From a virus (Duplodnaviria > Heunggongvirae > Uroviricota > Caudoviricetes), in IMG/VR virus record IMGVR_UViG_2778261356_000005, positions 1-11,676 of that record: DNA of 11,676 bases; one strand, given 5' to 3'. The position numbers are program-made. Of this stretch, positions 6,001 through 9,000 are shown in pieces. Positions within the stretch are counted from its first letter, which is position 1. Each line of letters starts with the position of its first letter.

Positions 6001-9000
6001 GCCACACAAAGGCCGTTTGTGTGTGTGCTAGTCGTGGAGTATGATTTACGGCAACCATAACGGCTCCTCGTTTACGTTGTTGGTTAGAAGCCCCGTTACT
6101 GCTCCAACAGTGCGGGGCTTCGTCGTTTCAATTGCTGAATTGCATGTATCAGCTCTTGTGGTATTCAGATTACATTTAAGTGAATACCATTTCAAGCTTT
6201 TTTGGGTATTCACTTTTGTGTTACACTGCATCCCGCTATTAATCGGAGGTGCAAACATGTCCACGAGTTCTGTTAACAATAAGTCACAGCAACTGAATGC
6301 CAGATTTCCACATGAAGTAGTGAGTGGCATTGAGGCATCCCTACAGCCAGGGGAAACTAAAGCGAATTTTATAGTTACAGCAGTACGCGGTGAGATCGCC
6401 CGCCGCCAAGCAGAAGGAAGAGGAGAAAACCCCCTGGTTTCTTCGCTCGATGCACTGGCGCAGGTGGAAAAAATCGGAGTCAAAGCAGCCGAGGAGATCG
6501 GGCAACTCGTCACCATCGCGCGTGAAGAACTCCAGCGTCGCAAGACCCAAGAATCAGAATAATAACTATCAGCGCCGTGGCGTGAGGAACTCCGGCGCAT
6601 TGCTTTACAGGGCAGTATCATGACCAACAACACACTATCACCAATACAAGACACGCAAACGCAAGATGATGAAATCATCCGGCAAAGGCAGTCAGAAGCC
6701 TGCGCCAGAGTTGAGGAAGAACTAACCAGAACAAAAATACCACCACCAGCGCCGCGCTTAGTGCCACCAGAAAAATTTGCCCTTGAAGATTTTGTCGATA
6801 AATACCCACGGCGGTTAAAAGCCACTAAAAACCGACCGCCTGGCTGATAGCCTTGTCCACCAGCCGTAAATGTGGCATTGTCGGCGATGCTCATGCGTTG
6901 GGGATAACGCGAAATTTGTGTCGAAGGGCCACCGTGACAGGTGGCCTTTTCTTTGCCTGTTATCCGGCAATTGTGGCGCTTCTTCACACAGTTGATATAA
7001 TTCCCCTGCACTGATCCAATTTTTTCGCAGCAGGTTAATTGTTCGCAAGGGCGCTCCGGCAACGGGGCGCTTTTTGTTTTTACCCACCAGCACAATAAAA
7101 ATCTTCATTTTCCATTTTTGTAAAATTTCATGCTTTCCGGACGACGGGCCATATGTCATTTTTTAGCAGAAGATTTTGCCTTGCTGGTGGGTAGCTTCTC
7201 GGTTAACACGATGTACCGTATAATCAGCACCGCGTGTGGTTACTGAATACGCTCACCAAAGTAAAACTCAGGCTGATATTCACGTATCAGCCTTTTTTCT
7301 TCTTCCTCCAGTTCACGTTTTTTGCGCTTACATGCCTGTAGCGCCCTCCCCTTCTGACTGGCACTTAACTGATATTGCTCTTTACGGCGAGAAAAGTCCT
7401 GTAATGCGCCCCACGGGATACCATAAGCCCCCGTTTTTCTGATTCCTGGTATCACATTCCTGAATACCCAGTTACTGAAACGATGGGCGAACGTGCCAGG
7501 AGTAACAGCTTTCCGACTTCTGGCGATCAGCTTGTAAAAACCGGATTCAGAAATGAGGCTATGATTTGGATTTCCTCGAATACCGTAGCTTAAAGCGACG
7601 GTTTTCTTTTCATCCGCATCTAGTGCTTTTAGAGCATCGCGTGAGTTACTTATTTCCAGAGCAACACAAACATCCTTTGCAACAAACCACGGATCACCGT
7701 TCAGATACACCACGCGAACGTTCACACTATCAAAGCGCAGAACGACCAGATCACGAAAATCACAGAATTTTTTTACATGACGTGCGTCACCCTTGCCCGT
7801 CACGGCAATATTTTTATTCATTTCTTTTTTACCTCACATACAAAAAACCCCGCATTGCACGCGGGGTATGAAAGATATTATTAGTGGGGATTGGCCTGTT
7901 CTCGTTGTTTATCTAACCATGCTTCTACATCTCTACGGTGCCAGGTATGTCGTCGTCCAATTCTGAACGGCTGAGGAAAACCATTATTCTCATCTTTCCA
8001 GAAATTGATGAATGCACTCATTGCTCCATATCGCAAGATTTTCATTACGTCTTTAGTAAATAAAATATCTTCATTGGTATTCATTTGCTGAACCTCCTCA
8101 ACCATTTACTACTCTTAAACCTTTCATACCACCGGATCTATTAATTACCCCTTTTCTCGCATCATCAAAAAAATCACCGACCCATTGCATCATGATCTTA
8201 CGCTGTTCTAGATAAATAGTTCTATTATAAATATCTCTTATTTTATCACCACTTTTATGCGCCAATGCAGCCTCGATTACATCGGGGTTAAATCCCTCCT
8301 CATTTAAAAGCGTACTCCACATCGAACGAAAACCATGTAACGTTACAATCCCTTTGAACTTGCTGGCAGCAATTGGGGTCTTGATAGTATTCCTCCCCAT
8401 AGGCGCATCTTTTGTTCTGGAGGAAAAAAACACATAACGCCCTCTTTTTATTTCCTGCATTGTTCTGAGGATACTAATAGCCTGTGATGACAAGGGAACA
8501 ACATGTTCACGATGGCATTTCATTTTATGCGCGGGGATAATCCACAAGCCAGAATCAAAATCAATCTCTGACCACTCTGCTTTAATCGCCTCACCTGGCC
8601 TGACCATTGTCAATATCTGGAATAAAAGTGCATTATGAGCTATTTGATAGGTATGAGGCACACTATCCCACCAGCTCAGAAATTCAGGCAATCTTTCAAC
8701 AGGTAGTGCTGCTAATGATTTATTTTTCTTTCCTGTGAATGCAGTCTTTATCTTAAGTAATGGATTTGCTTTCAATGCTCCACAATTTACAGCATAATTC
8801 ATAATTTCATTTAATCTTGATATTAATTTTTTTTGCAACGCATTCTTATCGGATACGGCATCCAGAGCATTAATAGCTACTGGTGCTGTAATTTTTTCTA
8901 TACTGTACTTACCAAAGAAAGGAACAAGATATTTGTATACTTCATATTCGATATTATACAGCGTAGGTTTCCGCAATTCAGATCCCTTTTTAAAAGCGAA

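Follow-up and report, generated by a model that had tools for sequence, protein, structure and literature searches.

A predicted cis-antisense small RNA opposite a long putative leader frame upstream of the replication module in a Gram-negative phage-inducible chromosomal island

The virus sequence considered here, hereafter the window, is a stretch of 11,676 nucleotides (nt; positions 1 to 11,676 of IMG/VR record IMGVR_UViG_2778261356_000005) and, judged by its gene content and by the bacterial locus that it matches, is a satellite of the Gram-negative phage-inducible chromosomal island (PICI) kind, embedded in the large-terminase gene of a prophage. Between its plus-strand regulator cassette and its Bro-N gene lies a predicted small RNA of about 72 nt (7008-7080, 73 nt, plus strand, delimited by covariance model and folding) that is convergent to the int, alpA, bro and Icd-like/primase genes. 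Because of this convergent orientation, the RNA forms a perfect complement to the 5'-proximal portion of a long open reading frame (ORF) on the minus strand. This ORF starts directly behind alpA or bro, crosses the plus-strand cassette in antisense, and is either fused to the Icd-like gene or stop/start-coupled to it. On balance, the sequence comparisons presented here make it somewhat probable that the RNA is a cis-antisense countertranscript that silences the replication module by way of this leader ORF. What is directly observed is the gene anatomy, its conservation, the strand of the RNA, where the RNA lies with respect to the long frame, and that this frame persists between islands; these points are taken in turn.

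The predicted promoter is built around an extended -10 element, TGATATAAT (6993-7001, plus strand; TGaTATAAT), which the original prediction had described as textbook, and which is indeed present as the sole match to TGNTATAAT in the window. One such match is not significant alone, with 0.38 expected and at least one found in 65 of 200 shuffles. The accompanying -35 (GTGGCG, at a spacing of 17 base pairs, bp) is poor, and for this reason the element was not listed by a two-hexamer promoter scan. It is conservation, and not the motifs alone, that lifts the case above chance. The region upstream of a conserved linker in the RNA, AGGTTAATTGTTC, falls into at least five mutually non-alignable sequence classes (A-E), or at least seven in all when the units of classes F and G are included, and a -10 of the form TAnnnT is found in every class. 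Among 128 copies, 82 combine TG and TATAAT with a poor -35, and the 46 copies without the TG have TTCACT, TTCACA or TTGCCC exactly 17 bp from a -10 of TATAAT, TAAAAT, TACAAT or TATCAT, such that the -35 of the TG-less classes matches the consensus at four to five of six positions. Likewise, in classes F and G, TTGCCC or TTGTCC is followed after 17 bp by TATGAT, TATCAT or TAAGAT. In alignment A2, the T, A, A and T of the hexamer and a G at -14 (two bases upstream of the hexamer) are invariant, with flanks that are non-alignable between classes. This trade-off between TG extension and -35 is the pattern that selection for promoter activity would predict. Each class is therefore predicted to carry a sigma-70 promoter at a conserved position and with a consensus-like sequence, equipped either with the TG or with a -35 spaced by 17 bp, and since the promoter lay outside the pattern used to retrieve related islands, its conservation is free of retrieval bias.

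An intrinsic terminator (T2, 7047-7080, plus strand) follows on the same strand, within 50-300 nt of the promoter. The sequence AAGGGCGCTCCG-GCAA-CGGGGCGCTTTT (7047-7074) forms a 12-bp stem with a GCAA loop and is followed by the tail UUUUUGUUUUU, and the hairpin with its TGTTTTT is the top match of a terminator scan of the window (12 bp, 7 of them GC). Its free energy of -20.4 kcal/mol (z = -4.5) was equalled by none of 200 shuffles. The strong terminator that had been noted after the -10 is thus the strongest in the window, with a U tract extending to 7080, and the accompanying proposal of a roughly 70-nt transcript with no credible ORF agrees with what is found at 7008-7080, where there is no plus-strand ORF and no coding signal. 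T2 is asymmetric between strands, the G·U pairs and the U tract being on the plus strand only. On the minus strand the hairpin is weaker because the G·U pairs become A·C, and a 73-nt minus-strand antisense RNA folds at -13.7 kcal/mol overall, no better than shuffles (z = 0.1). In other islands the variants of T2 all have folding energies between -17 and -21 kcal/mol. A paired G/C insertion distinguishes the two main haplotypes (GCGCUCCG/CGGGGCGC versus GCGGCUCC/GGGGCCGC), and one pair varies between C-G, U·G and U-A from island to island.

The predicted RNA as a whole opens with a class-specific, unstructured 5' region of about 24 nt, continues through the conserved linker, and ends in the terminator hairpin and U tail; its total length is 53-86 nt across classes. 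In the window, folding indicates no structure in the 5' 39 nt (z = +0.8), and in several classes a weak 5' hairpin forms that is specific to the class. The linker (7032-7044, plus strand) is A/U-rich and lies immediately 5' of T2 (alignments A2 and A3), and its variants AGGCTATTCGTTC, AGGTAATTCGTTC and GGGTTATCTGTTC are found in other islands. Most minimum-free-energy folds of the various classes leave it single-stranded, although the fold obtained for the window has a weak 7-bp hairpin there. Two further candidate features of this region were set aside: a 5' stem CUGC/GCAG, which several variants disrupt and which would need transcription to begin before the expected +1, and a programmed frameshift at the AAAAAG before the hairpin, for which the heptamer and spacer do not fit.

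The block that extends from the octamer CCACCAGC (6857) to the end of the second of two terminators (7082) is present in 453 of 5426 complete Escherichia coli genomes (about 8%), many of which match in the block only, with different flanking cassette and Bro modules. With a 23-base degenerate pattern over the linker and terminator, the unit was also found in more than 119 IMG/VR contigs, and among species-representative genomes the same pattern was found in Escherichia ruysiae only. The sequenced phages held no match to the block, and a plasmid collection held one. A second set of 78 loci, fetched by way of the DUF4222 protein and free of pattern bias, included 54 with enough upstream DNA. In 50 of these 54 islands there is a covariance-model match, always on the strand opposite to DUF4222 and 1.5-2.8 kb upstream of it, and the four or five exceptions have other, non-alignable promoter-RNA-terminator units (classes F and G) in the same spot. 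The model matches the window at 7007-7081 with 94 bits, and in all 155 model matches (155/155) the RNA is on the strand opposite to the Icd-like, DUF4222 and primase genes. The original prediction was to be abandoned if the promoter and terminator were not conserved in related elements; both are kept in every class, and the comparative data support a promoter-to-terminator small-RNA gene of about 70 nt.

The original prediction also placed the small RNA between the regulator locus and the Bro-N gene. The location stands, in an unannotated 392 bp from the plus-strand cassette to Bro-N, but this is not functionally empty intergenic DNA, since opposite the RNA lies the 5' part of a long and conserved minus-strand ORF. 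In the window this ORF (6046-7095, minus strand) has 349 codons, begins at TTG, and is antisense to the RNA, to both terminators and to the whole plus-strand cassette. Its stop codon lies 8 nt past the Icd-like ATG, giving a 13-nt overlap. This ORF is the putative leader and target of the RNA. Across 102 distinct contexts, the minus-strand frame through the RNA region has a median length of 401 codons and is at least 150 codons long in 98, compared with medians of 14 and 19 codons for the other two minus-strand frames. In 78 of the contexts it is in frame with, and ends in, the Icd-like domain, and in a further 14 it stops within 40 nt of the Icd-like ATG, which by sequence predicts a translational link between leader and downstream gene. 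The part that is antisense to the cassette belongs to at least 13 sequence clusters, including cassettes of the YlcI/YnfO and HicB types. PGAP labels part of the frame in E. coli RM10466 as an 'Icd-like, missing C-terminus' pseudogene, and recurrent calls of this kind in RefSeq/PGAP arise because the long frame is fused to Icd-like in related islands. Over the equivalent ORFs of loci L003 to L209, the RefSeq/PGAP entries are repeatedly 'host cell division inhibitor Icd-like protein, incomplete' pseudogenes or hypothetical proteins, and in some genomes (for instance, locus L010) it is the plus-strand cassette genes that are omitted from the annotation instead.

The start of the long frame lies close to the RNA in most island types. 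At locus L009 (O104:H4), an ORF of 522 codons that ends in Icd-like opens with GGAGG-N8-ATG, which overlaps the stop codon of ant; 24 nt separate this start from the RNA 3' end. In L004-type islands, GAGG..ATG lies 5 nt past the alpA stop codon and about 6 nt from the RNA end, and in class F the ATG follows the stop codon of an alpA-like gene by 9 nt and lies 6 nt outside the U tail. In class G, AAGGAG-N8-ATG is itself complementary to the RNA. The start is therefore 6-24 nt from the RNA 3' end in the L004 and L009 types and in class F, inside the RNA in class G, and 87-294 nt upstream of the RNA in some other types.

Within the block at least, the long frame is kept open with no constraint on what it encodes. 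Its three codon positions have similar numbers of variable sites (18/23/19, 49/53/46 and 15/23/17), and within the block, changes in the long-ORF frame are 44 synonymous versus 292 non-synonymous (13% synonymous). Selection on amino acids left no signal on either strand of the block, as is expected of non-coding sequence. The same counts recover the expected excess at third positions in Icd-like, Bro-N, the helix-turn-helix (HTH) gene and YlcI/YnfO (8/8/25 for Icd-like, and 11/4/32 for the plus strand of the cassette). The predicted translation of the long frame is rich in Ser, Cys and Arg, as antisense sequences are, and has no Pfam or NCBIfam match.

How such an RNA might act can be outlined from what is known of related islands. 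In EcCICFT073, AlpA activates the alpA promoter, from which transcription extends into the genes downstream, and Gram-negative PICIs have no known repressor (PMC6092414). C4/isrK-type immunity RNAs have been described in the Bro zones of some PICIs (PMC10111431). The simplest model to take in the whole anatomy is a countertranscript of the sar/ant (P22) or CopA/tap/repA (R1) build. In the quiescent island, the RNA would pair with transcripts arriving from the alpA side, and pairing would occlude the start region of the leader frame, abort its translation, or trigger cleavage of the duplex. Ribosomes would then cease to follow RNA polymerase over the approximately 1 kb of antisense cassette, exposing untranslated RNA to Rho termination or decay, and the Icd-like and replication genes would remain off. 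Strong alpA-driven transcription, or late transcription from the helper, would titrate or override the RNA. That the RNA is produced, that the long frame is translated, and that this regulatory outcome follows is what we infer from the layout described above. The skew of C over G that might mark a Rho site is modest, limited to one stretch (6960-6841), and uninformative.

A stronger version of this proposal is a two-layer RNA/translation gate, in which the long frame is open purely for ribosomes to escort the polymerase from alpA/bro, over the inverted regulator cassette, to the Icd-like and replication genes, and the antisense RNA at the entrance decides the outcome; we regard this version as tentative and rather doubtful. 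If true, such a gate, which has not been described for PICIs, would represent the long-sought negative control ('immunity') of the Gram-negative PICIs, and would mean that an open frame is under selection where two genes occupy the opposite strand. The silence of Gram-negative PICIs and their switch-on by the helper is an open question (PMC6092414), for which an antisense RNA between the alpA/bro and replication sides would be a concrete control candidate. The RNA would in addition be an unannotated family present in about 8% of complete E. coli genomes, and the long frame, antisense to real genes, may exemplify selection for translation as such, with none on the protein made.

Several observations weigh against the countertranscript proposal. 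Formal covariation is weak, both in RNAalifold on 25 variants and after re-alignment with the covariance model, as independent haplotypes of the terminator are few and its two registers are not alignable; folds of the individual variants were used in place of a consensus structure. Neither a conserved 5' stem-loop or kissing loop nor a covarying helix was found in the RNA. Because 23 bases of the linker and terminator were fixed in the retrieval, conservation there in loci L012 to L130 is partly by construction. The proposal fits the window's own island least well. In this island type, in which Bro-N is adjacent, the long frame has a TTG start only, with no Shine-Dalgarno sequence, 15 nt from the RNA end. 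An ATG close by (7108) belongs to a different frame, which ends at 6815, a strong minus-strand terminator intervenes between alpA and bro-N, and all five short-frame contexts belong to this island type, such that the coupling may be weak or lost in the island at hand. In the types with starts 87-294 nt upstream, the distance implies that direct occlusion of initiation is not a general mechanism. Lastly, third-position variation and counts of synonymous and non-synonymous changes in the cassette fit both strands alike (enrichment of synonymous changes 36/19 versus 37/17), since the wobble positions of the two frames coincide, and translation of the long frame is therefore no more than putative. 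The coincidence, which concerns the YlcI/YnfO gene (6257-6562, plus strand) and the long antisense frame, lets one stretch of DNA satisfy both frames.

It is also conceivable, if improbable, that the RNA is real and acts in trans, as an Hfq-type regulator whose linker AGGUUAAUUGUUC or 5' end would target host or helper mRNAs, the antisense position being incidental. Linker, terminator and U tail are the usual build of Hfq-dependent small RNAs, and here a conserved, single-stranded, A/U-rich linker directly 5' of a GC-rich terminator and a long U tail is kept across differing 5' regions. Many prophage-encoded small RNAs of pathogenic E. coli also act in trans (PMC4104026, PMC5286369). Yet the units of classes F and G, which have no linker, still lie over the start of the long frame in the same place and direction, and none of the sequenced phages carries the element. 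A scan of the island revealed no convincing complementary site elsewhere in it, and target prediction within the island, by RNAduplex and by ungapped complement scans, gave nothing above noise.

The DNA upstream of the RNA bears on whether there is an RNA gene at all. A first unit (6851-6954, plus strand) consists of TTGTCC, a 17-bp spacer that includes the Chi complement CCACCAGC (6857-6864), CATTGT, about 60 nt, and a terminator, T1, identified by folding as a hairpin (6924-6949; -19.5 kcal/mol, z = -3.4) with a U tract (TCTTT) to 6954 on the plus strand. T1 was missed by the terminator scan because of its tail rule only, and is supported by a compensatory variant, GGCCACC/GGTGGCC versus GGCGACC/GGTCGCC. 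This is the separate terminator that was first noted just upstream of the small RNA and regarded as insulating it. The terminator exists (6924-6954), and together with its upstream flank it is homologous to the complete class F gene of other islands, a second copy of this kind of small-RNA gene; positions 6851 to 6954 align with such genes (alignment A5), the difference being a degenerate -10, CATTGT in the window versus TATGAT. The block thus looks like two tandem units, the first of which is probably reduced mainly to a terminator for the plus-strand cassette.

Chi sites (GCTGGTGG) bracket the RNA block, with minus-strand sites at its ends (6857-6864 and 7084-7091) and an opposing plus-strand site (7183-7190) 100 bp further on, which forms with that at 7084-7091 an 11-bp inverted repeat (ACCCACCAGCA/TGCTGGTGGGT). 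The window has 11 Chi sites in 11.7 kb, whereas a random octamer would be expected about 0.36 times on the two strands. The CCACCAGC at the left edge of the block is nearly invariant across classes and coincides with the exchange point of cassette modules; the promoter spacer of classes E-G contains it.

With this in mind, the small RNA gene could be illusory, tandem terminators serving to guard bro, alpA and int from antisense transcription out of the plus-strand cassette, with an inactive -10 and a block conserved for other reasons (Chi, recombination junctions or the minus-strand frame). Such an arrangement seems unlikely. It would account for the single terminator of classes E-G, which is 80-110 nt past the cassette stop codon and could be the cassette's own, for the coincidence of the block boundaries with Chi sites and module exchange points, and for the -35 of classes E-G, which overlaps the invariant Chi complement CCACCAGC and might be conserved on its account; nor, as noted, is one TGNTATAAT in 11.7 kb significant alone. 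However, the class A cassette already has T1, making a T2 with its own promoter redundant, and the promoter in the window contains no Chi. An inactive hexamer would not be expected to give an invariant -10 across non-alignable classes, with reciprocal compensation between TG and -35, and the distance from -10 to terminator stays in the narrow range of small RNAs in all classes.

That the minus-strand frame is selected as the N-terminal part of a genuine long Icd-like protein, the plus-strand signals being by-products, is very unlikely: the persistence of the frame (at least 150 codons in 98 of 102 contexts, with in-frame fusion to Icd-like in 78), credible ribosome-binding sites in several types, and the PGAP alignment of the frame to reference 'Icd-like' proteins speak for it, but there is no third-position bias, synonymous changes within the block amount to 13%, the Ser/Cys/Arg-rich sequence is without a match in Pfam or NCBIfam, the peptides encoded here by classes A-G are unrelated, and the embedded plus-strand genes belong to real families. 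An open, unconstrained frame fits instead a need for translation with an irrelevant product, which is compatible with the countertranscript reading.

In searches of the whole window (E up to 1) and of 6780-7300 (E up to 10), no Rfam family was matched, C4 (RF01695) and isrK (RF01394) included, and the same search detected a 72-bit C4 in locus L197 as a control. The look-alikes isrD, ctRNA_p42d and SpF41 reflect resemblance of terminators and are all far below gathering scores. In L197, the C4 (1949-2036, plus strand) precedes the second of two Icd-like domains (1604-1783 and 2112-2240), and a class F convergent RNA lies upstream of the first, such that two RNA control modules stand in tandem. 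No paper describing the small RNA was found in the literature. Of two named candidates, Esr41/EcOnc14 is unrelated and located in SpLE1, and EcOnc33, an Hfq-CRAC candidate of about 71 nt with a terminator (Sakai Sp6), is in a Q-S moron region and not in a PICI. A type I toxin was also discarded, as the minus-strand peptide (MKIFIVLVG...) is 97 amino acids (aa) long and specific to the Bro-adjacent flank. With no Rfam match, no paper found, and an architecture unlike the C4/CI type, the small-RNA family appears to be undescribed.

The wider setting is that of a helper-embedded PICI (HE-PICI), for which the layout is a succession of Integration, Bro, Replication and Late zones (Mageeney et al., PMC10111431). 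From 6600 to 7500 the window is 100% identical to E. coli RM10466, where the locus is annotated as a 10.3-kb island splitting the large-terminase gene (gpA) of a lambdoid prophage, and the zone order, together with insertion in, and co-orientation with, a prophage late gene, is that of an HE-PICI by the RM10466 annotation, Pfam and NCBIfam. On the minus strand, the annotation gives the integrase (8098-9336), an AlpA-like HTH protein (7881-8105, also by Pfam) and Bro-N (7240-7821, also by Pfam), followed by the replication-side operon, in the order Icd-like, small ORFs, DUF4222 and primase. The Icd-like gene (5864-6058; NCBIfam phage_ICD_like, E = 4.8e-18) is the first of this operon, the small ORFs and DUF4222 lie between it and the primase (2920-4674), and a prohead-protease/capsid fusion is found at 59-1948. 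The plus-strand cassette (6257-6847), convergent with Bro-N, comprises a YlcI/YnfO-family gene (6257-6562; NCBIfam YlcI_YnfO_N, E = 1.3e-16) and an ORF of 75 aa (6620-6847), and shows weak hints only of a ribbon-helix-helix or antitoxin-type fold.

Other features of the window deserve mention. The strong minus-strand intrinsic terminator referred to above, ACCCCGCGTGCAATGCGGGGT followed by TTTTTG (7867-7847), lies in the 59-nt gap between the alpA-like gene and Bro-N, and because of it alpA transcription would need read-through or antitermination to enter the rest of the island, for example by a Q-modified polymerase of the helper in the helper-embedded setting. A 10-bp hairpin with T-rich flanks on both strands (7270-7293), within the 3' end of the Bro-N coding sequence, has the look of a bidirectional terminator, and a GC-rich hairpin, AAGCCCCGTTACTGCTCCAACAGTGCGGGGCTT (6088-6120), is found in the divergent region between Icd-like and the plus-strand cassette. 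The unannotated gap between the primase and capsid genes contains a second plus-strand promoter-terminator pair (2261-2385), consisting of TTGACG-N18-AATATT (2261-2290) and the hairpin AAAAGCGCCTCCG...CGGGGGCGCTTTTTTT (2331-2370), with a predicted RNA of about 80 nt. This unit has weak partial matches to ctRNA_p42d and to the terminator half of the small-RNA covariance model. Clusters of direct and inverted CTCTACCC/GGGTAGAG repeats (2675-2912) adjoin the start of the primase gene and are probably the iterons of the island's replication origin.

Phages and plasmids are known to have antisense RNAs in their control regions, and immunity through RNA has already been suggested for PICIs. To our knowledge, there is no close precedent for the coupling of such an RNA to a very long, product-indifferent frame that crosses an inverted cassette. 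The OOP RNA of phage lambda, a 77-nt antisense RNA in a lambdoid regulatory region that acts through RNase III cleavage of the duplex, resembles the RNA described here in being short and antisense with its own promoter and terminator. However, OOP lies over the 3' end of cII, whereas the RNA here lies over a 5' leader, and the two sequences are unrelated.

In the immI (arc-ant) region of phage P22, the sar RNA (68-69 nt) has its own promoter and an intrinsic terminator, and is convergent to the operon that it controls. It is fully complementary to the translation-start region of the downstream gene, in a module with small repressors and an antirepressor of the Ant/Bro type. The RNA of the islands likewise comes right after bro or ant, next to a cassette of small, possibly ribbon-helix-helix, regulators. 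Yet there is no sequence or Rfam relationship, the gene order differs, and sar targets ant, whereas the proposed target in the islands is a long leader frame that continues into Icd-like or is coupled to it. In addition, the overlap in most types is inside or just after the start codon, and not at the ribosome-binding site.

In plasmid R1 (CopA/tap/repA) and in the IncB/IncI plasmids (RNAI/repY/repZ), a short constitutive antisense RNA blocks translation of a leader frame that is needed for the replication gene. The leader frame of the islands similarly overlaps the Icd-like ATG or is fused to Icd-like, ahead of the primase operon. The plasmid leaders are about 25-30 codons long, whereas the leader here has 180-800 codons and runs antisense through two real genes; nor was a stem-loop for kissing contact found, and control of copy number is not implied.

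The c4-icd-ant system of P1/P7 and the CI RNA of P4 offer a further likeness, in that an immunity RNA controls translation of icd and, through polarity, of the genes behind it. C4 and CI are co-directional with their targets, are cut from the operon transcript, and act on separate sites. In contrast, the RNA predicted here is convergent to its putative target, would be made from its own promoter and ended at its own terminator, and is perfectly antisense to the leader frame.

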